From an uncultured Acidobacteriota bacterium (GTDB lineage Bacteria; Acidobacteriota; Thermoanaerobaculia; UBA5066; DATFVB01): DNA of 13,242 nt. The stretch spans positions 1 to 13,242 of the forward strand of contig CAWEYG010000021.1 of the NCBI GenBank assembly GCA_963813155.1, read 5' to 3'. Below the pieces are notes generated by a model that did not search any database, had not been told where the DNA came from, and worked only from the letters and a program-made list of their open reading frames with translations. A program made the translations under genes and the position numbers. Positions within the stretch are counted from its first letter, which is position 1. Each line of letters begins with the position of its first letter. Below are positions 1 through 12,806 of the stretch, piece by piece.

Positions 1-575
1 GAGGGCTTTTCTTTCGAGCGACAGCCAATGGAGCACCCGGGCGACGAGCTCTTTTCCGGTCCCTTTGTCGCCGTGATCGGACCCAGGCGTCCGTCGGCGC
101 GAACGCGCGCGATCTCTTCCCTCAGGCGCACCATCGACGGCGTCTCGCCGAGGAGCGTCCTCTCGCCGGACATTTTCTCGCGAAACCGGGCGACCTCCTC
201 CTGGAGATCCCGATGGTCGATCGCCTTCTTCGCCGTGAGCACGATGCGCTCGAGGGAAAGCGGCTTCTCGAGGAAATCGTAGGCGCCCGACTTGACGGCC
301 TTGACGGCGGTCTCCACGCTCGCGTGCCCCGAGATCATCACGACGGGAAGGCTCGACGTCCTCTCGCCGAGCGACTCGAGGATCGCGAGGCCGTCCTTGT
401 CCTTGAGCCACACGTCGAGGAAGACGAGATCGAACGTCTCGCGCGAGAGCTTCTCGAGGGCTTCGGTTCCGTCCGCGACCGCCTCGACCGAGTAACCCTC
501 GTCCGACAGGATCTGGGTCAGAGTCTGCCGGATGCCGCGCTCGTCGTCGATGACGAGAACTTTTCGATTCTTCAT
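1..575 (-). CDS. ntrX: NtrX-like / NtrC-family sigma54-type response regulator (REC plus start of AAA+ domain); partial, runs off the left edge
   Basis: Not in the ORF track; translated by hand from ATG at 575: MKNRKVLVIDDERGIRQTLTQILSDEGYSVEAVADGTEALEKLSRETFDLVFLDVWLKDKDGL...PVVMISGHASVETAVKAVKSGAYDFLEKPLSLER. This is a receiver domain with the DD pair, phospho-Asp in LDVWL, SGH and EKP. The AAA+ start (APTDAWV..., GTGKELVARVLH) is split over frames below ~102 by indels. GAGGA lies upstream of the start, which is 13 bp downstream of the kinase stop. Confidence 0.9.
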   Translation of the reverse strand, partial: MKNRKVLVIDDERGIRQTLTQILSDEGYSVEAVADGTEALEKLSRETFDLVFLDVWLKDKDGLAILESLGERTSSLPVVMISGHASVETAVKAVKSGAYDFLEKPLSLERIVLTAKKAIDHRDLQEEVARFREKMSGERTLLGETPSMVRLREEIARVRADGRLGPITATKGPEKSSSPGCSIGCRSKEKP

Positions 576-588
576 ACGGGCCGGTTCC

Positions 589-2724
589 TCATGCGGCCGG
601 AATCTCGATCACGAACTTCGAGCCCTGCGGCCGGTTCTCCTCCCAGCGGATCGTTCCCTGGTGGTCCGCGACGATTCGGGAGACGATCGCGAGCCCGAGG
701 CCCGAGCCGCCCGATTTCGTGGAGAACTCCGGCAGGAAGATCTTCTCGCGGTCCGCCGGGTCGATTCCGGAGCCCGTGTCGCACACCTGGATCTGAAGGG
801 CGCCGTTGCGCTCCTCGAGCCGAAGCGTCACCGCGCCACCTTCCGCGCTCGCCTCGAGGGCGTTGTCGAGCAGGTTCACGAGAACGCGCTGGAACTGGCT
901 CCCGTCGAGCCGGTAGACCGGCCGGGGCAGCGCGTTTTCGAGGCGAAGGGCGACCCCGTCCTTGGAATCGCGGTACAGCGAAACGGTCTTTTCGGCGAGG
1001 GACGACAGGTCGGTCATTTCCGGGCGCGACTCCGGCATCTTCGCGAATCTCGAGAACTGGTCGACCATCGTCTTCAGGAGGTCGACCTCTTCGATGATCA
1101 CCTCCGCCCCTTCGCGGACGGCGTCGGCCGCCCGGGGATCGCCGGCGTTGAGTTTCTTGATCATCCGTTCGGCGGAAAGCTTGATCGGCGTCAGGGGGTT
1201 CTTGATCTCGTGGGCGACCCGGCGCGCGGCCTCGGTCCAGGCTTCGAGCTTTTGCGCGCGCGCGACCTCCGTCGTGTCCTCGAGGGCGATCACGACCCCG
1301 CCTTCGGCCGGCATCGCCGCGACGGAGACTTCGGCGCGGCGCTGCTTTCCGGGGCCGCCGGACGCGAATTCCTTGGGCGCGGGCTTGTGCCCCTGGCGGA
1401 CCGCTTCGAGCGATTCGAACAGCGGCCGCAGCTCCGGCCGTCCCGCGAGCTCGCCGATCTCGTCGGGCGCCGTTTCGAGCCCGAGGATTTCGAGGGCCGC
1501 GGGATTGGCGAGCTGAATCTTGCCCGAAGGTTTGACGGCGACGATGCCCGTCCGCGCGGTCTCGAGAATCGTGGAGAGCAGCTGGCGCTCCCGGTCGAGG
1601 CGGTGATTGATGTCCGTGAGATCCCGGTTCGAGCTCTCGAGCCGCTGGCGGTTGTCGCGGATTTCAGCGGTCATCCGGTTGAACGACTCGACGAGTACTC
1701 CGAGCTCGTCGCTCGCCGGCACGGCGACTTCGGCGGTGAGGTCGCCTTCCGTGATTCTTCGGGTCGATTCCGCGAGCGCGACGATCGGGGCCGTCGTCCG
1801 TCGCGCCAGCGTGAGTCCGGTCCAGATGGCGGCAAACAGGAGAGCGAGGGTCAGGAGGGTGAAGACGAGGATATTGGTGGCCTGGATCGCCGGTTTCTGG
1901 ACTTCGATCTTTCGGTAGTCGCTCCACGCGCGCGCCACGAAGTCTCCGGCGGAAGCGTCCGCCGCGCTTACGCGCAGCCCGACCGCGACGACGCCGGACG
2001 CGGAACGGGCCGCGACCCGGACCCATCTCGAGTTGTCGTGCAGGAACGAAGTGAGCGAGGAGCTTCCCTGGCTCGCGGCCCGCGCAAGCAGCTCCGGCGG
2101 AAACGGGGGAGGCATCTCGCCGCCGGCGGACACGCGAACCGGCTGGCCCTCCGGCGGGTACAGCTCCAGGCTCCCGTAGCCGCGGAGCGTGAGCTCCCGC
2201 GCAAACAGCGCTCGCGCCGCCGCCTCTCTGCCCGTGCCGAGCTCCTGGGCGAGGGCCCGCGCTTCGCGCCCGGCGTCCTCCTCGACGCGGCGGTCGGCGA
2301 GGTCGCGCAGAAGCTCCGCGCGGTTCACGATCGTTTCGACGGGCGTCGAGAACCAGCGGTCGATCGACCTCTGCAGGAGGTTCGTCGCGGCCAGGAACAG
2401 CAGCGCGATCGGAATCGAGGTCAGGCCGAGCTGCGTGATCAGCAGCTTCGTCCGGAACTTCGTCCCGAGGCGCCCCCGGCGGCGGTCCAGGAGGAGCTTG
2501 ATGAGCGCGCGAAAAATCACGAAGAGCGTCGCCGCGATGAGCAGGACGTCGACGTACCAGAGGATGAACAGGGGAACCCGGCTCGCGAAATTCGCCGGTT
2601 CGAGGGGCCGGCGTCCTCCCTGGGAGAGGTAGATGCCGCCCCAGATGAAGAAGACCGCGAGGGCCACGGCGACGATCAGGCGATTGTCGCGGCGGTGCCT
2701 CAGGGCCCGTTCTTCCGGCGTCAT
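589..2724 (-). CDS. ntrY: NtrY-like membrane sensor histidine kinase (TM helices, periplasmic region, HAMP, PAS, HisKA, HATPase)
   Basis: H-box AWTEAARRVAHEIKNPLTPIKLSAERM (NtrY-type), N-box NLLDNA, G1 DTGSGI, F-box IFLPEFST, G2 GSGLGL. HAMP motif ITEGDL...DELGVLVESFNRMT. Several N-terminal hydrophobic helices. Start placed at ATG 2724 because it forms an ATGA overlap with the upstream stop; the ORF track start at 2769 lies inside the upstream gene. Confidence 0.93.
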   Translation of the reverse strand: MTPEERALRHRRDNRLIVAVALAVFFIWGGIYLSQGGRRPLEPANFASRVPLFILWYVDVLLIAATLFVIFRALIKLLLDRRRGRLGTKFRTKLLITQLGLTSIPIALLFLAATNLLQRSIDRWFSTPVETIVNRAELLRDLADRRVEEDAGREARALAQELGTGREAAARALFARELTLRGYGSLELYPPEGQPVRVSAGGEMPPPFPPELLARAASQGSSSLTSFLHDNSRWVRVAARSASGVVAVGLRVSAADASAGDFVARAWSDYRKIEVQKPAIQATNILVFTLLTLALLFAAIWTGLTLARRTTAPIVALAESTRRITEGDLTAEVAVPASDELGVLVESFNRMTAEIRDNRQRLESSNRDLTDINHRLDRERQLLSTILETARTGIVAVKPSGKIQLANPAALEILGLETAPDEIGELAGRPELRPLFESLEAVRQGHKPAPKEFASGGPGKQRRAEVSVAAMPAEGGVVIALEDTTEVARAQKLEAWTEAARRVAHEIKNPLTPIKLSAERMIKKLNAGDPRAADAVREGAEVIIEEVDLLKTMVDQFSRFAKMPESRPEMTDLSSLAEKTVSLYRDSKDGVALRLENALPRPVYRLDGSQFQRVLVNLLDNALEASAEGGAVTLRLEERNGALQIQVCDTGSGIDPADREKIFLPEFSTKSGGSGLGLAIVSRIVADHQGTIRWEENRPQGSKFVIEIPAA

Positions 2725-3293
2725 TTCAGGTCGGCGTCGTGAATCTTGAACGTCTTGGATTTTTTCCATTCCGTCGAGGAATCCACGGGAGCGAGCGCGA
2801 AGAACCTTCCGGCGTCGTACGAAGCGCGCATCTTGACGTACAGGTGCTTGTGGGGCCAGTCCTTCCGGATTCGAAACGCCGGCAGCTCGCTGCGCGAAAC
2901 GAGCATTCGCGCGGCCTCCGTGAACTCCTGGGTCGTGAAGCTGTTGGAAGGCTTTCCGTCCCAGAAGTCGCGCACGAGGTATTCGCGCCGGACCGGGTTG
3001 TAAGTTGCCGCGATACGGAAGCGGTGGGCATCGAGGAACTGGTCGAACCAGTACCGGTTGCGGTCGAGCAGCCGCAGGTCGTATTCGATCGACAGCTCGA
3101 GCCCGGATTCGAGCCGCCTCGAGAGCTGCGGATCGAGAGCGCCGTTCAGGGTGAAAGCGAGGAAGACCTCGTTTCCGCGGACCCCGATCACGAGCGGCGA
3201 AATGTGAGGGTTTTCGGCGCCGGCGCGGGGCGGCGACGCGAGCGCGAGAAACGCGAGCGACGCGCAGATTCCAAGCGTCCGGCGTGTTTGCAT
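2721..3293 (-). CDS. DUF4390-family exported protein (typical neighbour upstream of NtrY/PlrS-type kinases)
   Basis: 190 aa with an N-terminal signal peptide (MQTRRTLGICASLAFLALASPPRAGA). The pattern L..G..L.IEY.LRL...RYWFD...YNPV.REY resembles DUF4390. Its stop overlaps the kinase start. Family assignment is from recognition and synteny, not a search. Confidence 0.75.
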   Translation of the reverse strand: MQTRRTLGICASLAFLALASPPRAGAENPHISPLVIGVRGNEVFLAFTLNGALDPQLSRRLESGLELSIEYDLRLLDRNRYWFDQFLDAHRFRIAATYNPVRREYLVRDFWDGKPSNSFTTQEFTEAARMLVSRSELPAFRIRKDWPHKHLYVKMRASYDAGRFFALAPVDSSTEWKKSKTFKIHDADLK

Positions 3294-3299
3294 CCGGGA

Positions 3300-3305
3300 A
3301 TCTTA
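3300..3305 (-). promoter_or_regulatory. Putative -10 element (TAAGAT) giving a leaderless transcript of the DUF4390 gene
   Basis: Minus strand TAAGAT-TCCCGG-ATG: hexamer 6 nt before the start codon, no SD. Confidence 0.5.
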
Positions 3306-3330: not shown

Positions 3331-4218
3331 TCAGACGGCGAAGGAGGGCTTTGCCTGCCGGGCCGTCTCCCGCGACGGCTTTGCTCGCGAGGTTTCGCCG
3401 CTCGCCAGCTTTCGGACGAGCTCCGCGTGGAGAGCGTGGCCCGCCTTCCGCGCGAAAATGCGCCCTTCGAGCGGCCGTCCGAGAAGAGCGAGGTCCCCGA
3501 GCAGATCGAGGATCTTGTGCCGAACGAACTCGTCCACGAACCGGAGAGGGCCGGACAGGATGTTCTCGGTGTCGAGCACGACCGCGTTCTGAAGAGAGCC
3601 CCCGCGAGCGAGGCCGCGCTCGCGCAGGTACTCGATTTCGTGGGTGAAGCCGAACGTGCGCGCCGGAGCGATTTTCGAAGCGTAGCCGTCGGGCTGGCAC
3701 TCGAACGTCATCGCCTGCCGGCCGATCGCGCGGTGGGGAAAGTCGATCTCGTACGTGATGGTCAGGCCCTTGCCGGGCTGAATCGACAGGTACTTGTCGC
3801 CGTTGGAAATCTCGATCGGCTCCGCGGCCGAGAGAGGAGCGACCCTGCGGCTCTGCCGCTCGATTCCCGCCGCTTGAAAGAGGCGGACGAAGGGGAGCGA
3901 CGATCCGTCGAGGATCGGAAGCTCCTCGCCGCGGACCTCGATCTCCATGTTGTCGATGCCGAGGCCGTAAGCCGCCGACAGGGCGTGCTCGACGGTCCCG
4001 ATGAGGACGTCTCCGCGGCCGAGCGTCGTCGCGTGGTCGAACGCGAGCGCGCTCGTGGCGAACGCCGGGATTTCGACGGCGGGCCGGTCGTCGCGGACGA
4101 AAACGATTCCGCGGCCTTCGGGCGCGGGCCGGAACGTCGCTCTCGCCAGCTGGCCGCTGTGCAGCCCGACTCCCTCGATCGATACCGGCGTGCGAAGCGT
4201 TTGCTGTGCTCTCGTCAT
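3331..4218 (-). CDS. lpxC: UDP-3-O-acyl-N-acetylglucosamine deacetylase LpxC
   Basis: Starts MTRAQQTLRTPVSIEGVGLHSG. Zn-binding and catalytic motifs TVEHALSA, HKILDLLGDL and GHALH, plus ELPILDGSS and IAPARTFG. True start is ATG 4218 (295 aa); the 837-aa ORF-track call is an upstream over-extension. Confidence 0.97.
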   Translation of the reverse strand: MTRAQQTLRTPVSIEGVGLHSGQLARATFRPAPEGRGIVFVRDDRPAVEIPAFATSALAFDHATTLGRGDVLIGTVEHALSAAYGLGIDNMEIEVRGEELPILDGSSLPFVRLFQAAGIERQSRRVAPLSAAEPIEISNGDKYLSIQPGKGLTITYEIDFPHRAIGRQAMTFECQPDGYASKIAPARTFGFTHEIEYLRERGLARGGSLQNAVVLDTENILSGPLRFVDEFVRHKILDLLGDLALLGRPLEGRIFARKAGHALHAELVRKLASGETSRAKPSRETARQAKPSFAV

Positions 4219-4236
4219 TTCTCTACCCGAACGCAT

Positions 4237-4253
4237 CGCGAAGGACGTGCCAG
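4237..4253 (-). promoter_or_regulatory. Putative sigma54 (-24/-12) promoter upstream of lpxC
   Basis: Minus strand reads CTGGCACGTCCTTCGCG, i.e. TGGCAC-N5-TCGC with exact GG-N10-GC spacing (consensus TGGCAC-N5-TTGC). Predicted TSS ~4226. Confidence 0.7.
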
Positions 4254-4281
4254 CCGAGGGACGCGCCGGACGTCGTGATTC

Positions 4282-4303
4282 TGTTTTTGTTTTCAAGAGT
4301 TTC
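4282..4303. promoter_or_regulatory. IHF-like / AT-rich DNA-bending site
   Basis: TGTTTTTGTTTTCAAGAGTTTC: a T-tract followed by TTTCAAGAGTTTC (consensus WATCAANNNNTTR, two mismatches). It lies between the sigma54 motif and the upstream boxes. Confidence 0.45.
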
Positions 4304-4337
4304 CGGCTTGGACACCCCTCCACGCGGCGGGGTGGGA

Positions 4338-4374
4338 GTGGCGAATCGTTCACAGACTGTGGTGAATCGGCCAC
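4338..4374. promoter_or_regulatory. Tandem 16-bp quasi-palindromic boxes; candidate enhancer (UAS) for a sigma54 activator
   Basis: GTGGCGAATCGTTCAC (4338-4353) and GTGGTGAATCGGCCAC (4359-4374): 13/16 identical, both GTG-N10-CAC, starts 21 bp apart, ~110-150 bp upstream of the predicted sigma54 TSS. Confidence 0.6.
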
Positions 4375-4386
4375 GGTTGACCCCGA

Positions 4387-4395
4387 TGCTACGAT
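4387..4395 (+). promoter_or_regulatory. Putative extended -10 promoter (TGnTACGAT) for the HD-GYP/smpB unit
   Basis: TG-C-TACGAT ends 9 nt before ATG 4405; no strong SD. Confidence 0.45.
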
Positions 4396-4404
4396 GGGAC
4401 GGAA

Positions 4405-6012
4405 ATGCTTGATCCCACGGAAGAACAGGCTTACCGGGAGGCGCTCTTCACTTTGCTGGAAAGCAGCAAGGTCAGCCGCTCGGCCCTCTATCTGATGGAG
4501 CCGACCGGCGAGTTTCGGCTCGCGGCGCACCTGGGCTTCTCGCCGCGTGACCTTCCCGTCTCGAGTTTCGGGAAAGAGAGTCCTCTCTTCGAGCGAGCGA
4601 ACCATTTTCGAAAGCCGTTCTATTTCAATTCGCCGAAGGACGCGGGAGATCTGCGCCACCTCATGGAAACCTCGCGCACGGCGAAGCTGCTGGCGGCGCC
4701 GATCTACGAGGACGGCAGGCTGATCGGGATCGTCGAGGCGCGCGACAAGGCCGCGGGAGAGCTCTTTCACCAGGAGGATGCCGGCAGGCTCTCCAACGTG
4801 ATCGCGGCGATCCTCCATCGAAGGCGAGCCCGGCGCGGATCGGCGGAGTCGGAAGGAGAGCTCTCGAGTCCCCCGGGACTGCTCGACCTCTCGGCCTCCG
4901 CGGAGAGACGGCCGGGAGCTCCGGGGGCGCCCGTTTCGGATCTCGTCCGACCCGCCCTCACGCCGATCCCGCCGCCTCCGAAGCGGCCCCCGCTCACCCA
5001 GCGCGAGGTCGTTCTGTTTCGAGGCTTCGGGTCCGCGTTGCTTCTGAATCCCGGCCTCGGCGCCTGCGTCTTTTCTCTCTGGAGCGAAGAGTCCGCCGAG
5101 TTTTTCATCGCTTCGCGCGTTCCCCTGGCCGAAAGCGCCCGGGACGCGGTCTTTTCGAACGCTCTGGAGGTGCTCGGGCATCTGTATCCCGGGCGTCCCC
5201 GGCCCGCCAGCACGCGGTTCAGCACCGATCTCCCGCTCGGAGGAGGCGAAGGAGAAGTCGTCGCGGCGCAGATCACCGGGCTCCAGTCGTCGGTCGTGGT
5301 CTCCGAAGAAGGACGGGCCATCCTCTTCACGCTGCTGTTCATTTCCGAGCCGGACTCGAAGCTCGTCGCGGCGATCAAGGAAACTCACCTGCTCGTCCGG
5401 CGGGCGGTTTCCGAGACGCGCGAGGCCGTGCGCTACCGCGAGGCATTTCGCGGCCTGGTTCGGCGCCTGCTCGAACCCGGTCTGAAGAAGTACACGTCTC
5501 TCGTGACGCACAGTCTCGCGGTCGGAAAATGCGCGAGGGGGTTCTCGACGTATCTCAAGCTGCCCGAAAGGACAGTCGAGCAGATGACGGTGGCGGCCCT
5601 CCTGCACGACGTCGGCATGCGGGAGCTCGCGTACGATCGGCTCTCGGAGCGGCGTCCGCTCTCCGAGCCGGAATATCGCCTCGCCCGCGATCATCCCTCC
5701 GTCGGGGCGATGCTCCTCGCGGAAATCGATTTTCCGTTTCCGATCGTTCCTCTCGTTCTCCACCACCACGAGCGGTACGACGGGAGCGGTTACCCGGACC
5801 AGCTCCGCGGGGAACAGATCCCGTTCGGGTCGAGGCTGATCCACATCGTCGAAGCGTTCGACGCGATGACGTCGCTGTCCTCCTACCGTCCGCCGATCGG
5901 CCGGGAAGAGGCTCTGGACCGAATCGTCGCGAAGGCGGGGACCCAGTTCGACCCGGACCTCGCCGTCCGCTTCGGCGAGTTCATCTCGTCCGAAAACTTC
6001 GACCGATCGTGA
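4405..6012 (+). CDS. GAF-like domain / HD-GYP phosphodiesterase (putative cyclic dinucleotide hydrolase)
   Basis: C-terminal motifs THSLAV, ALLHDVG, HPSVG, HHHERYDGSGYP and IVEAFDAMTS..YR. N-terminal GAF-like region (ALYLME...FRLAAHLG...LLAAPIYEDGRLIGIVEARDK...F...D) followed by a Pro-rich linker. Confidence 0.9.
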   Translation: MLDPTEEQAYREALFTLLESSKVSRSALYLMEPTGEFRLAAHLGFSPRDLPVSSFGKESPLFERANHFRKPFYFNSPKDAGDLRHLMETSRTAKLLAAPIYEDGRLIGIVEARDKAAGELFHQEDAGRLSNVIAAILHRRRARRGSAESEGELSSPPGLLDLSASAERRPGAPGAPVSDLVRPALTPIPPPPKRPPLTQREVVLFRGFGSALLLNPGLGACVFSLWSEESAEFFIASRVPLAESARDAVFSNALEVLGHLYPGRPRPASTRFSTDLPLGGGEGEVVAAQITGLQSSVVVSEEGRAILFTLLFISEPDSKLVAAIKETHLLVRRAVSETREAVRYREAFRGLVRRLLEPGLKKYTSLVTHSLAVGKCARGFSTYLKLPERTVEQMTVAALLHDVGMRELAYDRLSERRPLSEPEYRLARDHPSVGAMLLAEIDFPFPIVPLVLHHHERYDGSGYPDQLRGEQIPFGSRLIHIVEAFDAMTSLSSYRPPIGREEALDRIVAKAGTQFDPDLAVRFGEFISSENFDRS

Positions 6013-6500: not shown

Positions 6501-9500
6501 CTATTCGGTTTCCCCCGGAACGTAGATCAGGTCGTTCGTGTGATTGTCGATCTCCGCGGCAAAAACGAGAGCCTGGCCCGAGCCGGAATCCACCGTGAAC
6601 TCGAGGTAGCCGTTGGACGAGGTTCCCGCGCCGAGCAGGTCGCCGAGGGTCGTCTGGAGCGTCGAGTTCGCCGCGAGCGAATAGGCCTTCGTTCCCTGCG
6701 GGATCCCGTTTTCGTCGAAGAACGTCGCCCGGATCGTGACCGGCGATCCGGAAACCTCCGTGAAGCCGAAATTCGTGCGGAAGTCCGAGTTGTGCGCCAG
6801 GTGAATCGAGACTTTCTTTCCGCCGGCCGAGAGCGCGTCGGAGGCCTTCGCCCCCGTGACGAAAAAGCCATAGGTTCCGGTCCCTCCCGGCGCGCCGTTC
6901 GGCGTCGAGGTCCGGGCGGAGACGAAGAGATTCGCCGGCGTCTGGGGATGGATCCGGAGCCCGGCGCCGGAATCGCCGCTGAGCCCGAAGAGGCTCTGCA
7001 GGACGTCCTTGAAGACGAGCGTCTGCCCGGGCTGAACGGTGATCGGGGCGGGAGAGGACGCCCCGCCGGTGCCGAACGCGGGGAGCAGTGAAACGGAGAA
7101 CGTTCGCGGCCCTGTGGACCGGTTCGTCGCCGAGAGGTCGGACGTCAGGAAGCTGTTGAACGAGCCATGGGTGTGGGCGACTTCCGTGATGACGATGTCG
7201 TCGCTGGACTCAGCCTGGGGCTTCGCGACCGAGAGGAGCGTGTCGCCCGAGCCCTCGTCGACCGTCGCTCCGTACGGGATGACGCGGCCACCCGAGAGAA
7301 CGGTGAAATCCAGCCGCGCGGCCGGAGCCGTGAATGCGTGCGCCGTGTCGGTGAGCGGGTTGTACTGCTGATTCGAGTAGGGGAGCAGGGTGAGCGTGAA
7401 CGTCCCCACCGACGCGCCCGATCCGTCGAATCCGTCGACTCGGACCGTCGTCGTCTGCCCGGATGCCTCCGTCGCGCCGACGTTGGTGTGGAACCCCGCC
7501 GCCGTCTCGAAGCCGTTCGCCGTCGCGGTTCCGTCGGCGGCGCCGACGGCTCCCGCCGGCGTCGACGTCGGGACGAACGTGCCGAAGGTTCCGTCGGCGT
7601 TGCGCGTGTAGGCCCGCGAGGACGCGTGGAAAGACGTTCCGTCCACCGCGACGAGGACGAGCGATCCGACGGATCCGGGCGAGTCGAAGTCGTTCAGGCA
7701 GAGGTCGTTTAAGGCGAGCGATTCGCGCGGCTGAACGAGATGATTGACGCCGAGCGCCGAGCTGGCGGCCTGCCCCTGCTGCACGAGAAAGGCGTTGATC
7801 GTCACCGGATGCGAAAACGACGGATTGAAAATGCGAGCGTCGCTCTGGAAGAAGAACCCCGCGCCCTGGGTATTCGCGACGAGGGGCACGATGCGGCGGA
7901 AGTCCGAGCCGTTGCTCGCGGGGACGGATTCAACCGGAGCGGGCTTGTACCGCGGCTGGAGCACGTTGCTCGCGAACCCCTTCGAGTCGAAAAGCTGGAG
8001 GCTGACCGAGACGCAGTCGGGGCACACCGACGCAGTCACGCCCGTGATCTGGAGCTCCTCCGTGACGTCTTTCTGGCCGTCGAGCGAACCGTCGAACGAG
8101 CCGGGCGCAAGGGCCACGACCTCGCCGGTCGAATCGTAGAAGAAGACCGAGAATGAGTCGATGTCGCCCTCGTTGTCGTGCGCGGTGAAATCGATGTCGA
8201 TCTGGCCTGGCGTCACGGGATCGACTTTCGCCGAGGCGGTCTCCAGAAGGGGCGGGGTCCCGTTCTGATTCTGAATCCGGATCCAGTACGGAACGTAGAG
8301 CGCGCCGGAAATGGTCGCGCCCCCGTCCGAGATCGTGACGGCGCCTTCGGAATCGTTCTGACCGTGAGCGATCGAGGCCGCGACGTTCAACGTGAGCGTG
8401 AACGTTCCCGACGTCGCCGGCGCCAGCGAGAGGGTCGAGGGCGAGACGGTCGGCGTGACAGCCGGGTCGCTCAGGCCCGACGTCGCCGCCGCCTGGAGCT
8501 GGTACGTCGCCGGTGAGGCGCTCTTGTTCTCGAGAGTGAACGTCTGCGTGAGGAATCCCGCCGGCGGGGCGCCGTTCAAGAAAACCTGCCGGAAGGACTG
8601 GCTGGCGGGCAGCACGACCGCTTCGACGGCCGAGGCGGCCGCGAGATCGATGTCGCCCGAACCGCGGCGCATCACCGAGAGGTTGCCGATGCGGGAGGCG
8701 TCGTTCGGGTCGGTCGGCCTCGTTGCGGTTTCCATGAGGCCGGCCTTGATTTCGGCGGGTGTCCAGTTCGGATGCTTCTGGACCATCAGCGCGGCGGAGC
8801 CTGCGGCTCGCGGAGCGGAGAACGACGTCCCGCCCCCGAACCTGAAGCCCGAAGGATCGAAGAAGGGAGTGTCCTGTCCTGAATCGGGGTCGGGAAGCGG
8901 AAATCTTCCTTCGCCGAGGGGGTCGTCGTCCTGGCAGGCCGCGTAGCTTCCGACGCCGACCGAGGTGAGATCCGGCTTGATCTGGAAGTCGATCGTGGGC
9001 CCGTTCGAGGAAAAGTCCGCCAGGTCATGCGAAGGCGCGGCGAACGTCGCGGCCGGTGTGCCCGCCGGCGCGGGGCCGAAGCTTCCGGTCGGCGCGGAGG
9101 CGCCCGGGTTCGCGTCGAGGTAAGCCTTCAGGTTCAACCCGTCCGTCCGGGTGACGAAAATCGTCGGGATCGTCGTGCCGTCGACGGACGGCTGCAGCAG
9201 CGAATCGCCTCCCGGAGTCCCGCAGCTGGAAGAAGCCGCGTCGCAGTTGTAGATGACGACGCCGATGGCGCCCGCCGAGGCGGCGTTGCCGACTTTCGCG
9301 GAAAACGTGCACGTGCCGCGCTGGATGAGAACGATCTTGCCGGAGATCAGGGGATCGAGGATCCTCGTGCAGCCGAGCGAATCGCCGGCGCCGTCGGAGT
9401 TGTCCCAGTCGAGGAACTTGGCCGAGATGGGAACCGCGGGGAACGTCACGCTGGACCCATCCCCCTGGGCCCCGATGATGTTCGCGACGGACGGAGGCGC

Positions 9501-10745
9501 GCCCCCGTCGGTCATCGCGACGCGGGCCAGAACGCTCGCGCTGACGCCGTTGTGCGAGTTCGTCGTCGCCCCGACGGCGATCACGTCGGGAATGTCGGCG
9601 CTCGAGCTGATCGAGCCGGGAAGCACGTTGCCGTTGGCGTCGACGCCCGAATTTCCGGCGGAGATGGTCACGACCATTCCTCCCGCGATCGCGTTCTCGA
9701 TCGCTTCGAACTCGCCGGCGTTGTTGAAGAGAAAAGGCTCCAGCCCCGTGTCGGGGTCGTTCAGGCCGAACGACATGTTGAGCACGTCCATTCCGTCGGC
9801 GACAGCCTCGTCGATCGCGGCGATGATGTTGTCGGTGAAGGCATTCGGCGCGAAGACCCGGTAGTCGCCGATGTAGGCCTTCGGTGCGACGCCTTCGAGC
9901 GTCACCGGGCGCCTCCCCCCTCCCGACAGGGCCACTTTCGCGCCGGCCGCGACGCTCGCGGTGTGCGATCCGTGGCCGGAGAGATCCTGGGCGGTCCGGT
10001 GGCCCGCGTTCAGGGCGGCGCTGGTCGAATCGATGATGCCCTGAAAGTATTTCGCGACGATGACCTTGGAATTCGCGAAGTGATTGCCGTCGTTTTCCTT
10101 CGGAAAGCCGGCGGGCATCGCGAGGGAGGAGTCGGAAAACATCGGGTTGGAGAAATCGACGCCGGTGTCGACGTCGGCGATCTTGACGCCCGCGCCGGCG
10201 TTCGCGTCTCCGCCGACGGTCCCCCAGAACGCGGGCGCGTTCATCAGCGGATTCGAGGTGTCGAGGTGGAGCTTGTATTTTCGAACGGGGTAGACGGTCT
10301 TCACCCGCGGATCGGATCGCAGGACGGAGAGGCCTCCCTCGGGGACGAGAACCGACATTCCGTTCAGCACGTTTCGGAATCGGGCTCCCGCCTGGAACCC
10401 GGCGATCTTCCCGCGCATGTCGGCTTCGAACGCGTCCTGTTTCGAAGAGAGATCCCGGGCCAACGCGTCCACCTCGGACGGGAGGGCCGCTCGAAAGGGT
10501 TTCGCCGCGCCGGACGCGGATGTCGAAAGCGAGCGCACGAGAGGGGCATCGCGCAGGACGACGATGTAAGCCCTCCTTCCGTCGCTCGCGGCTTCGGTCG
10601 CGAGGTCCGACGATGCGCCGCGAATCGGCGAGAGCGACACCGTCGCCGTCGCGCCGAAGGATCGGCCCGGTCCGAGCGCGACGAGCGCCGAAAGGAAAAA
10701 CGAGACAAAAAGACCTCTACGTCCGATATTTTTCATGATTTCCAA
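6501..10745 (-). CDS. Secreted S8 (subtilisin family, Vpr-like) serine protease: I9-like propeptide, catalytic domain with PA insert, Ig/Fn3-like domains and a duplicated C-terminal module
   Basis: Catalytic triad D (ADVDTGVD), H (GHGSHTAS), S (GTSFSAP); oxyanion SAGNSG; FSSNGP...IKPDL; PA domain GKIVLIQRGTCTFSAKVGNAASAGAIGVVIYN; propeptide YIVVL...NGMSV; signal peptide. TTG start at 10745 has GAGGAG 6 nt upstream; alternative ATG at 10736. Confidence 0.95.
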   Translation of the reverse strand: MEIMKNIGRRGLFVSFFLSALVALGPGRSFGATATVSLSPIRGASSDLATEAASDGRRAYIVVLRDAPLVRSLSTSASGAAKPFRAALPSEVDALARDLSSKQDAFEADMRGKIAGFQAGARFRNVLNGMSVLVPEGGLSVLRSDPRVKTVYPVRKYKLHLDTSNPLMNAPAFWGTVGGDANAGAGVKIADVDTGVDFSNPMFSDSSLAMPAGFPKENDGNHFANSKVIVAKYFQGIIDSTSAALNAGHRTAQDLSGHGSHTASVAAGAKVALSGGGRRPVTLEGVAPKAYIGDYRVFAPNAFTDNIIAAIDEAVADGMDVLNMSFGLNDPDTGLEPFLFNNAGEFEAIENAIAGGMVVTISAGNSGVDANGNVLPGSISSSADIPDVIAVGATTNSHNGVSASVLARVAMTDGGAPPSVANIIGAQGDGSSVTFPAVPISAKFLDWDNSDGAGDSLGCTRILDPLISGKIVLIQRGTCTFSAKVGNAASAGAIGVVIYNCDAASSSCGTPGGDSLLQPSVDGTTIPTIFVTRTDGLNLKAYLDANPGASAPTGSFGPAPAGTPAATFAAPSHDLADFSSNGPTIDFQIKPDLTSVGVGSYAACQDDDPLGEGRFPLPDPDSGQDTPFFDPSGFRFGGGTSFSAPRAAGSAALMVQKHPNWTPAEIKAGLMETATRPTDPNDASRIGNLSVMRRGSGDIDLAAASAVEAVVLPASQSFRQVFLNGAPPAGFLTQTFTLENKSASPATYQLQAAATSGLSDPAVTPTVSPSTLSLAPATSGTFTLTLNVAASIAHGQNDSEGAVTISDGGATISGALYVPYWIRIQNQNGTPPLLETASAKVDPVTPGQIDIDFTAHDNEGDIDSFSVFFYDSTGEVVALAPGSFDGSLDGQKDVTEELQITGVTASVCPDCVSVSLQLFDSKGFASNVLQPRYKPAPVESVPASNGSDFRRIVPLVANTQGAGFFFQSDARIFNPSFSHPVTINAFLVQQGQAASSALGVNHLVQPRESLALNDLCLNDFDSPGSVGSLVLVAVDGTSFHASSRAYTRNADGTFGTFVPTSTPAGAVGAADGTATANGFETAAGFHTNVGATEASGQTTTVRVDGFDGSGASVGTFTLTLLPYSNQQYNPLTDTAHAFTAPAARLDFTVLSGGRVIPYGATVDEGSGDTLLSVAKPQAESSDDIVITEVAHTHGSFNSFLTSDLSATNRSTGPRTFSVSLLPAFGTGGASSPAPITVQPGQTLVFKDVLQSLFGLSGDSGAGLRIHPQTPANLFVSARTSTPNGAPGGTGTYGFFVTGAKASDALSAGGKKVSIHLAHNSDFRTNFGFTEVSGSPVTIRATFFDENGIPQGTKAYSLAANSTLQTTLGDLLGAGTSSNGYLEFTVDSGSGQALVFAAEIDNHTNDLIYVPGETE
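6504..7898 (-). repeat. Protein-level tandem duplication (2 x ~225-230 aa) at the protease C-terminus
   Basis: Copy 1 ~7898-7230, copy 2 ~7199-6504. Colinear motifs: VANTQG/VAHTHG, FQSD..IFNP/LTSD..ATNR, VQPRESL..ND/VQPGQTL..KD, SSRAYT/SARTST, GTFGTFV/GTYGFFV, FHTNVGATE/FRTNFGFTE, FDGSG/FDENG, DFTVLSG/EFTVDSG, VDEGSGD/IDNHTND. Confidence 0.8.
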
Positions 10746-10830: not shown

Positions 10831-11538
10831 ATGATCGCGGTCCTGGCGGATTCTCATCTTGGACAGGGGTCTTCCGGCCTTGCCCCGTTCCGCCAGGCCC
10901 TCGCCGAGGCCCGCGGGCGGGGCGCGACCGCGGTGTACCTTCTGGGCGACATTTTTCAGTATTTAATCGGAGACCCGAAATTCTCGACCCCCCTCCTGCG
11001 CGGTTTTCTCGAGGAAATCCGGGAGATTCGATCCCGCGGGGGGAAAGTCGTCTACGTCGAGGGGAACCGGGACTTCTACCTGCGAGGCTCTTACCTCGAG
11101 AGGGAATTCGACTCGATCCGCCCCGAGGCCTCGTTCGAGGCCGGGGGCCGGAAGTTTTTTCTGGTCCACGGAGACGGCATCAACGAGCGCGACTGGCCCT
11201 ACCGGTTCTGGCGGTTCGTCTCGAAGAACCCGGTCGCTCGGGCGGCGATGACTCTCGTGCCCGGCGCGGCCGCCCGCCGTCTCGTGTCGAAGACCGAAGA
11301 GCGCCTGCGGGAGTCGAATTTCAAGCACAAGTCGCGTCTTCCGGTAGACCTGATCCGTTCCTTCGCGGAAAAGCGGTTCGCGCGAGGAGACGACGTCGTT
11401 CTCCTGGGCCACTTTCACCAGGCGTGGCGCGAGCAGATGCCGGGCGGGGAAGTCCGGATCGTGCCCCCGTTCCTCGAGGAGCGGAGCTGGATCGAAATCG
11501 ACGACAGCGGCGGGATCGCGGTCGTCGGGCTCGCGTGA
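10831..11538 (+). CDS. lpxH: UDP-2,3-diacylglucosamine diphosphatase LpxH (calcineurin-like metallophosphoesterase)
   Basis: Motifs DSH, GDIF, GNRDF (the Arg in GNRD is typical of LpxH), HGD and GHFH; 235 aa. Confidence 0.88.
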   Translation: MIAVLADSHLGQGSSGLAPFRQALAEARGRGATAVYLLGDIFQYLIGDPKFSTPLLRGFLEEIREIRSRGGKVVYVEGNRDFYLRGSYLEREFDSIRPEASFEAGGRKFFLVHGDGINERDWPYRFWRFVSKNPVARAAMTLVPGAAARRLVSKTEERLRESNFKHKSRLPVDLIRSFAEKRFARGDDVVLLGHFHQAWREQMPGGEVRIVPPFLEERSWIEIDDSGGIAVVGLA

Positions 11539-12795
11539 TCTTCGCGGCGGTTCCTCGGATTCCGGAGGTTCGAGGCCGCGTGCGCGTCCCCGGCTCGAAG
11601 AGCCACACGAATCGCGCCCTGTTGCTCGCTTCGCTGGCGAGCGGTCCCGTCCGGGTCCGCGGCGCGCTGCAGTGCGGCGACGCGGATTCGCTCCTGGCCT
11701 GCCTCGCGGCCGCGGGGGCGTTGATCGAACGGGGACCCTCGGAAATCCTCGTCACGCCCGGGCGGCCTCCCGCGTCCTCGGTCGTGTTCGACGTTCGCGA
11801 CTCCGGAACGGCGTGCCGGTTTCTCGCGGCCTCGGCGTCGGCATCGCCCGGGCTCACCGTGACGTTGACCGGATCCTCACGGCTGCGCGAGAGGCCGATC
11901 GGGCCTCTCGTCGACGCGCTGAGAAAACTCGGAGCCGAGATCGCGTATCTCGGCCGGGAAGGCTTTCCCCCGCTCGCGATCCGCGGCCGGTATCTGGACG
12001 GAGGCGAGGCGGCCGTGGATGCCTCGGCGTCCAGCCAGTTCGCTTCGGCGATCCTTCTCGCAGCGCCGCGGATGCGGGGCGGCGTCCGCCTGCGCCTCGA
12101 CGGGGGGGAGGTCTCGCGGGCCTACCTCGACACGACGTCGAAGCACTGTCCTCGGCGGGCGTGCGCTGGACGCGCGCGGGCCCGGCGATCGAAGTGCAGC
12201 CCGGCCCGATCCGGGTCGATGAGATCGCGATTCCCGGGGATTTCTCCTCCGCCGTCCCGCTCGCGGGGGCGGTCGCGGTTCGCGGCGGCGAGATGGAGCT
12301 CGCGAATCTTTCGTGGCCCTCCTCCCAGGCGGACGCCGCCGCGTTTGCCGTGCTGGAGAAGATGGGCGTCGCGATCGCGCCGGCGCTCGACTCGCTCCGC
12401 GTCTCGGGAAAGGCGACGCGTCCCGTGGCCGTCGATGCGGCGGGCTTTCCCGACGCGGTTCCGGTCCTCTGCGCGATCGCTTCGGGGCTTTCCGGGGAGA
12501 GCGTCTTCTCGGGCGTCGAGCATCTGCGCCTGAAGAGAGCGACCGGATCGAGGCGATCCGGGACATGCTGGCCGCGACCGGCGCGGCGTCGAGCGCGGAG
12601 GCCGGCCAGATGGGGGTGGGAGGAGCGGCGGCCGATCCCCTCTCGGAAGTGGTGCTTCCGACGTGCGTCGACCACCGCATCGTGACGGCGTTGACCTTCT
12701 CGCCTCGAGCGCGGCGGATTCGTCGAAGATCCCGGATCGGTCGGGAAATCCTCTCCCGCTTTTTCCGGGATCTCTTCCGCTGTATCTTCTTGTAA
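11535..12795 (+). CDS. aroA: 3-phosphoshikimate 1-carboxyvinyltransferase (EPSP synthase) AroA, frameshifted in this sequence (probably read errors)
   Basis: GTG start overlaps the lpxH stop. Frame A: PGSKSHTNRAL, SGTACRFL, RERPIGPLVDAL, SSQFAS. After ~12137, frame B: IPGDFSSA, QAD, PDAVP, HLRLK. After ~12535, frame C: ESDRI, DHRI. Further indels near 12690-12760 (EDPGSVGKS..FFRDL). End coordinate approximate. Confidence 0.9.
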
Positions 12796-12806
12796 AGAAA
12801 AACACG

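Follow-up and report, generated by a model that had tools for sequence, protein, structure and literature searches.

The window, by which we mean the whole 13,242-nucleotide stretch of DNA analyzed, is, judged from its sequence, that of a Thermoanaerobaculia-like acidobacterium: the best named relatives of its LpxC are Thermoanaerobaculia (80-90% by protein), and a quick tree puts the protein in a Thermoanaerobaculia-type clade of 10 rows (SH-aLRT 97). LpxC catalyzes the first committed step in the synthesis of lipid A, a component of the outer membrane. Its gene, the regulated gene of this study, occupies positions 3331 to 4218 of the minus strand (Pfam LpxC, E 4.8e-98; TIGR00325 above its cut-off). 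An intergenic stretch of 186 nt, 4219 to 4404, separates lpxC from a divergent plus-strand gene encoding a GAF/HD-GYP protein (4405 to 6012), which is followed by smpB. The minus-strand gene order is lpxC, DUF4390, ntrY, ntrX, comprising an exported, PlrP-like DUF4390 accessory protein (2721 to 3293; PF14334, E 1.1e-14), an NtrY-like sensor kinase with HAMP, PAS, HisKA (bearing HEIKN), and HATPase domains (589 to 2769), and an NtrX-like response regulator, the proposed activator, whose REC domain and Walker A motif are present before the gene is cut by the window end ahead of GAFTGA (1 to 575). The reading frame of the regulator changes several times in the last ~100 nt (window 1 to 110), placing Walker A in another frame; these changes are probably errors in low-quality sequence. 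Atlas look-ups returned known families alone.

The DUF4390 gene comes next after lpxC in the window and in 10 related loci (among the best 80 of 596). Its product is confidently predicted to fold as an Ig/FnIII-like beta-sandwich (pLDDT 88.6), and comparison of this predicted structure gave no Foldseek match at E 0.001, a best Z of 8.2 to generic Ig/FnIII domains, and no clue to function or signal. A putative sigma70-like -10 hexamer, TAAGAT, recognized by eye on the minus strand at 3300 to 3305, lies 6 nt ahead of the DUF4390 start codon and may mark an internal, leaderless promoter for the regulator genes; similar hexamers occur there in related loci. A second putative -10 element, TG-C-TACGAT (plus strand, 4387 to 4395, hexamer at 4390 to 4395), would serve the divergent GAF/HD-GYP gene. 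A sigma70 scan of 4150 to 4500 found no promoter.

For comparison we took lpxC loci from one genome scan, keeping the best 80 of 596 confirmed; the closest encodes an LpxC 66% identical to that of the window. A quick tree of LpxC splits the loci into 35 Terriglobales and 46 others, the window being one of the 46. "Terriglobales" here denotes a clade of 35 (SH-aLRT 97) with all rows named Terriglobales or Terriglobia; it takes in all rows named Acidobacteriaceae but one, L062, which falls with the Vicinamibacterales. Because of kinship, counts over these loci are not independent samples.

Upstream of lpxC, at 4238 to 4252 on the minus strand, TGGCACGTCCTTCGC differs at one position from the sigma54 consensus TGGCAC-N5-TTGC and is the sole site of that quality on either strand of the 13,242 nt. 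It has GG at -24 (4251-4250) and GC at -12 (4239-4238), at the fixed spacing and upstream of a gene, and standard sigma54 geometry predicts a transcription start at 4226, 8 nt ahead of the lpxC ATG at 4218. Taken alone, the site carries modest statistical weight: a one-mismatch site arose in 34 of 200 shuffles of the whole window and in 7 of 1000 shuffles of the 186-nt stretch. The -24/-12 element put forward by the initial annotation is nonetheless where it was claimed to be, and it is conserved. In 42 of the 46 non-Terriglobales loci (window included; best 80 of 596), a site with at most one mismatch lies no more than 150 nt from lpxC, against 4.5 of 46 expected by shuffling at a laxer two-mismatch level and 1 of 46 in a coding control; the other 4 loci lack one. 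By group, again among the best 80 of 596, it is found in Thermoanaerobaculia (10/10, window included), Blastocatellia (12/12), Nitrospirota (5/5), Methylomirabilota (3/3), Myxococcota and deltaproteobacteria-type loci (7/7), and 5 of 9 others. The window's -12 element, TCGC, is non-canonical, and a non-TT pair precedes GC in all 10 loci of the Thermoanaerobaculia clade. No rpoN motif was found in the 80 lpxC loci (best 80 of 596), a search that covered the loci only and is uninformative on whole genomes.

Farther upstream, GTG-N10-CAC occurs at 4338 and 4359, 21 bp apart and nowhere else in the window. The pair arose in 0 of 200 window shuffles, by a pattern written after it had been seen, and two boxes arose in 0 of 1000 intergenic shuffles. 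Fixed by the initial annotation before any relative was seen, the GTG-N10-CAC pattern is present in 45 of 80 loci (window excluded; best 80 of 596) against 4.1 expected, made up of 17 of 45 non-Terriglobales and 28 of 35 Terriglobales loci against 2.0 and 2.1. Other spacers across the same best 80 of 596 were at chance level (8, 9, and 11) or, for 12, raised (25/80), an excess that we attribute to the same palindrome. The boxes are at the places claimed for them and are conserved, but they are better read as 18-mers at 4337 to 4354 and 4358 to 4375, with GTG-N10-CAC as the core of a full box, TGT(G/T)GC-N6-GC(C/A)ACA, a consensus derived from these same loci. In scores from a matrix trained without the window, the putative distal box is the stronger (15.3 bits, the best in the window) and the putative proximal box the weaker (third best); the second-best score belongs to an 18-mer at 6855, inside an S8 subtilase gene, and is probably due to chance. 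Tandem boxes of the TGTTGC variant 21 bp apart would yield GCA-N9-TGC over their junction (window 4349 to 4363), the motif published for alphaproteobacterial NtrX; we regard this match as a lead only.

With at most two mismatches, the full box is found in 28 of 46 non-Terriglobales loci, leaving 18 without it, and in 34 of 35 Terriglobales loci (best 80 of 596); shuffling predicts 1.6 of 46 and 1.2 of 35, and coding controls gave 3 and 7. A matrix built solely from Terriglobales scores above shuffles in 27 of the 45 remaining loci (best 80 of 596), and boxes with at most one mismatch number 51 in the 24,079 nt upstream of lpxC versus 10 in 1,057,720 nt elsewhere. Box centers in related sigma54 loci lie at -75 to -163 from the predicted starts, and where a second site occurs it most often lies at a spacing of 21 (6 loci) or 22 (3 loci; best 80 of 596). 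The window's predicted centers, -119.5 and -140.5, fall within the range of about 80 to 150 bp from the start that is usual for activator sites. Phasing at 10.5 bp was not significant (p 0.33); the best period, 11.5 (p 0.003 on 25 distinct positions), was uncorrected for kinship and is therefore not relied on. A sigma54 promoter with candidate upstream activator boxes, the core of the initial annotation, is conserved in 10 of 10 Thermoanaerobaculia-clade loci and in other classes and phyla, and the comparison of related lpxC upstream regions that it called for finds both elements well above expectation. We consider it very likely that the boxes are activator sites. Two close relatives, L002 and L004, have a sigma54 site without a box or a linked ntrYX regulator; they share an AT-rich motif near -70 and may use another activator.

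Between promoter and boxes lies a T-rich tract (plus strand, 4282 to 4303) whose IHF-like core, TTTCAAGAGTTTC at 4291 to 4303, is centered at about -71 and has two mismatches to WATCAA-N4-TTR. The tract is in place as annotated, but its own match is at chance level: the window holds 13 such matches versus 15.3 expected, and when the local stretch is shuffled, one arises in 14% of cases. IHF sites with at most one mismatch are, however, enriched in relatives, occurring at 14 of 42 related sigma54 promoters (best 80 of 596) versus 3.5 expected from single-base shuffles; two of them lie at -72 in the same orientation as the window's.

The initial annotation did not name an activator; the likely one is the NtrX-family regulator encoded three genes downstream of lpxC. 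The gene for this regulator lies behind lpxC in the window as well as at 10 of 80 loci (best 80 of 596). The REC, AAA+, and Fis-type helix-turn-helix architecture is complete in the orthologues at related loci, and the sigma54-contacting loop of the lpxC-linked regulators, read in 10 of 10 full sequences (best 80 of 596), is GAFTGA in 8 and GSFTGA in 2. NtrX is the top NCBIfam and PDB match both for the window fragment and for the orthologue at locus L006. The latter is closest to Brucella NtrX and then to Aquifex NtrC-family entries; it scores 494.9 bits against the NtrX equivalog model NF051870, below the cut-off of 600, and for this reason we call it NtrX-like rather than an NtrX equivalog. 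Its DNA-binding domain has two strong structural-database matches only, Brucella NtrX (E 1e-12) and Aquifex 3E7L/4FTH (E about 1e-10), the next having an E of 0.012. By its name 4FTH is NtrC4 of Aquifex aeolicus, which work by Vidangos et al. from 2014 is said to have placed at two sites upstream of lpxC.

At three of the related loci the box recurs right after lpxC (L005 and L007, at most one mismatch each; L006, two), and in all three it covers the putative -10 of DUF4390-ntrY-ntrX, a pattern of self-repression. The L005 and L007 boxes are 2 of the 10 found away from lpxC upstream regions in 1.06 Mb. The window has no box between lpxC and DUF4390. The neighboring regulator is, on this evidence, the probable reader of the boxes. 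In two Methylomirabilota loci, L056 and L070, the regulators have a changed recognition helix, GIGRVNLWRK, and the boxes are weaker and more widely spaced.

The explanation we favor, and hold to be likely, is a sigma54-dependent lpxC promoter with two upstream sites for an NtrX-family activator encoded by the neighboring gene, so that the control region probably lets the neighboring two-component regulator switch on lpxC. Sigma54 holoenzyme would sit in a closed complex on 4238 to 4252, a step in which, given the conservation of the site, we have high confidence. The periplasmic DUF4390 protein and the NtrY-like kinase/phosphatase would set the phosphorylation of the regulator in response to a signal that is probably envelope related, by analogy with Bordetella PlrP/PlrS and Desulfovibrio Dde_3000. 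Regulator dimers would bind on one face of the helix, at both 18-bp boxes (spaced by 21 bp), and then oligomerize. A bend between boxes and promoter, probably made by IHF near -71, would loop the activator to sigma54, a step to which we give slightly better than even chances. The GAFTGA loop and ATP hydrolysis would then release the sigma54 lock, in line with the established mechanism (PMC7175178, available text), and transcription of lpxC would start near 4226. A sigma70-type promoter located after lpxC probably serves the regulator genes separately, so that the circuit could not lock itself off.

The Terriglobales depart from this arrangement. None of the 35 loci (best 80 of 596) has a sigma54 site at one mismatch, and 3 have one at two mismatches, versus 3.5 expected; yet the box is kept in 34 of 35 (e.g., L027, L053, and L011), about 90 nt upstream of lpxC. 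A divergent sigma54 promoter as the explanation for these boxes was rejected, as a search of the reverse strand out to 700 nt found one in 0 of 35 loci. TANNNT begins 39 to 41 nt after the box start in 35 of 35 loci, and exactly 40 nt after it in 29, versus an expected 0.29 loci per offset and 2 of 27 box-bearing loci elsewhere (best 80 of 596). This fixed distance would place the box center near -43.5, abutting the -35 element, the class II position described for VpsR (PMC6158489, available text). IHF-like sites also lie 40 to 110 nt upstream of the box in 12 of 35 Terriglobales loci (2.2 expected), with no sigma54 promoter there, and L014, a Terriglobales sister locus, has the box with neither promoter type clear.

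The regulators of this group are altered as well. From 150 representatives of regulator relatives, two close ones, chosen for their altered loops (GALPGA and SSFPGA), became seeds. Relatives of one come from "Ca. Angelobacter" (Terriglobia) in 9 of 12 organism-bearing rows, the other 3 being "Ca. Solibacter," Actinomycetota, and "Ca. Limnocylindrales"; those of the other come from Terriglobales in 7 of 7. Among 240 distinct Terriglobia-type NtrX proteins, 0 of the 239 with a readable loop keep GAFTGA (as G[AS][FY]T), but 114 of 120 and 108 of 120 have the recognition helix GLERSHLYRKM(K/R) intact, and the Walker A/B motifs are kept too. These proteins form one clade (100) within a group that includes the acidobacterial lpxC-linked regulators (SH-aLRT 90, not firm). 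The absence of intact loops (0/239) and the fixed -10 (35/35), which come from proteins and promoters of different genomes, are the marks of atypical, sigma70-linked activators. VpsR, TyrR, HupR, HsfA, and PhhR (PMC6158489, in the text available) likewise have lost GAFTGA and have a site immediately upstream of -35; unlike them, Terriglobia NtrX has Walker A/B motifs, and its sigma54-using counterpart survives in sister classes with the same target and the same box.

The Terriglobales thus appear to have kept the binding box but moved lpxC to an ordinary, housekeeping-type promoter, a switch that counts as one evolutionary event. We lean toward the view that an NtrX-family activator, the 18-bp operator, and sigma54 form an old and widespread means of lpxC control outside the Proteobacteria, rewired on the Terriglobales stem. 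The promoter would have lost -24/-12, with the same operator now lying at about -43.5 of a sigma70-type promoter; the regulator, its GAFTGA lost (to GALPGA/SSFPGA) but its recognition helix intact, would have turned into a class II activator or else into a repressor acting at -35. If this is right, a sigma54 circuit has been converted to a sigma70 one, and both end states survive on one gene and one operator; they would form a natural pair showing, before and after, how an enhancer-binding protein turns into a sigma70 regulator, in parallel to alphaproteobacterial NtrX.

The initial annotation took sigma54 control of lpxC to be undescribed. That claim fails, because papers on Desulfovibrio vulgaris and D. 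alaskensis (PMC3333781, PMC4045070) already describe sigma54- and activator-dependent control of lpxC. As far as the available text of these papers goes, DVU2934, annotated ntrX, has lpxC as its sole target, with a sigma54 promoter and the motif GTGTGCAGAACACAC at -136; it has orthologues in Geobacter and Acidobacterium capsulatum, the motif precedes lpxC in three Desulfovibrio genomes only, and a diverged motif elsewhere was proposed by the authors (Rajeev et al. 2011, PMC3333781). In D. alaskensis, a sigma54 site lies at the start of lpxC and a box at -101, and lpxC goes up when the kinase is mutated (Kuehl et al. 2014, PMC4045070). The window resembles these systems (DVU2931/DVU2934 and Dde_3000/Dde_3003) in its predicted REC-AAA-DBD regulator of the ntrX-annotated kind, its lpxC target, its sigma54 promoter, and a palindromic box about 100 to 140 bp upstream with TGTG/CACA half-sites; DVU2934 and the window regulator are likened here by shared target and family annotation. 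Unlike the 18-mer, the Desulfovibrio motif is a 15/16-mer, and the Desulfovibrio regulator lies in a separate operon with an HD-GYP regulator, whereas the window's follows lpxC and DUF4390, with an HD-GYP gene divergent. The HD-GYP proteins on both sides hint at a link to c-di-GMP. The published motif, GTGTG-N5-CACAC (PMC3333781, available text), is phased differently from the 18-mer, and its GTG-N9-CAC core occurs in 1 of 80 loci (best 80 of 596), the chance level. The DVU2934 gel-shift oligonucleotide, as far as its source is available, reads by eye as GTG-N10-CAC with 9 of 12 consensus positions, followed by TGTG after 3 nt, which is the layout of the window. Since this validated oligonucleotide also holds the 18-mer, the two motifs may be one motif in different phase. 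A different Desulfovibrio activator, DVU3305, has the motif GTTGC-N6-GCAAC (PMC3333781, available text), which matches the TGTTGC variant; given this likeness and the difference in phase, motif shape does not identify the reader.

That likeness bears on the main competing reading, in which the sigma54 promoter is real but another enhancer-binding protein reads the boxes, and NtrYX is linked to them by gene order alone. Besides DVU3305, it draws on the 70 of 80 loci (best 80 of 596) in which no regulator lies within 8 kb or the contig ends first, and on the Methylomirabilota orthologues that have box-like sites despite a changed recognition helix. Against it, in 3 loci the box sits on the putative promoter of the regulator genes themselves, the loss of the sigma54 site with the box kept is paralleled by a lost GAFTGA in Terriglobia NtrX, and Desulfovibrio ntrX binds upstream of lpxC; we regard a different reader as unlikely. 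We find it very unlikely that the boxes mainly serve the divergent GAF/HD-GYP gene through a sigma70-type promoter, with lpxC incidentally near. The distal box does overlap the -35 region of that putative promoter (window 4358 to 4395), and divergent -10-like hexamers occur in relatives as well; however, the upstream gene varies (HD-GYP, smpB on either strand, or other families) while the box stays with lpxC, the upstream gene in L006 and L007 points towards lpxC, and the distance from box to divergent -10 is variable. A side effect of the boxes on the divergent gene is possible.

Slighter still is the chance that the boxes are sites for a CRP/FNR-type global sigma70 factor, or RNA structure, and the sigma54 match incidental. 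TGTG...CACA half-sites resemble those of CRP, and the Terriglobales box has a class II position, but the CRP spacing, GTG-N8-CAC, is at chance level (2 of 80 loci, best 80 of 596, versus 4.8 expected), the window has no Rfam match and a folding z-score of -0.77, and the sigma54 site is conserved; both forms of this reading were rejected. Chance matches in a GC-rich intergenic region would account for the IHF match and for the frequency of one-mismatch sigma54 sites in window shuffles, but for promoter and boxes this reading is scarcely credible and was rejected on conservation counts far above expectation; for the IHF site it may hold.

A sigma54-dependent promoter with an NtrX-family activator can be set beside other known systems. 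Sigma54 lpxC promoters have been predicted in Leptospira (PMC12655853) and Myxococcia (PMC12316311), according to the text available. Alphaproteobacterial NtrYX (Brucella, Rhodobacter, and Caulobacter) gives the best full-length and DNA-binding-domain match and is tied to envelope control. In the sources as available, Brucella NtrX represses its own promoter, and alphaproteobacterial NtrX has an altered GAFTGA, is classed as atypical and sigma70 linked, recognizes GCA-N9-TGC (PMC7240162), and affects lpxC indirectly (PMC7240162, PMC12444477), in Rhodobacter negatively (PMC7240162). The window's relatives differ in keeping GAFTGA and a sigma54 promoter. The available text of PMC3162934 and of a Caulobacter preprint makes no direct statement on lpxC and sigma54. 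In Bordetella PlrSR, a DUF4390 protein is the third component (PMC13001219, available text), and the window shares with PlrP-PlrS-PlrR a DUF4390 gene directly 5' of a gene for an NtrY-like kinase with HEIKN, here followed by ntrX. The Bordetella plr genes, unlike the window's, are preceded by rsmB rather than lpxC, and lpxC is unmentioned in the text of PMC13001219 available.

A circuit of this kind is therefore known, and the promoter in the window is an unremarkable example of it; what is added here is the operator, the range over which it occurs, and the switch in Terriglobales. A search confined to papers, few of them behind subscription, returned no acidobacterial report and none of these three in print. 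The conservation counts suggest that Acidobacteriota, Nitrospirota, Methylomirabilota, and Myxococcota commonly place lpxC under dedicated sigma54/NtrX control. Lipid A regulation was reviewed in 2025 (PMC12444477); that review, in its available text, lists transcriptional lpxC control as broad alphaproteobacterial regulons only and leaves Desulfovibrio and Aquifex unmentioned. Our analysis supplies a testable operator where the Desulfovibrio study found none outside that genus, and makes lpxC a candidate target for this regulator family.

Transcriptional control of lpxC does not exclude proteolysis. The window LpxC ends, after a variable linker, in a conserved non-polar tail, PSFAV (window 3334 to 3360), which reads PSFAG or PSLAG in the majority of its 40 closest relatives; a non-polar tail is also seen in many Terriglobales. 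Such a tail is a possible protease tag, and proteolysis may therefore act alongside transcriptional control. Among the remaining genes of the window, a lipid A gene encoding an LpxH-like UDP-2,3-diacylglucosamine diphosphatase (10831 to 11538, below the NCBIfam cut-off) lies 6.6 kb from lpxC. The exported S8 subtilase (6501 to 10745, 1414 aa) carries a PA domain, and its long C-terminal part has no Pfam match. aroA (11535 to 12800) matches Pfam over its first half alone and its reading frame stops early; its C-terminal part seems to run on in another frame, and the window's last kilobase also looks error-prone.
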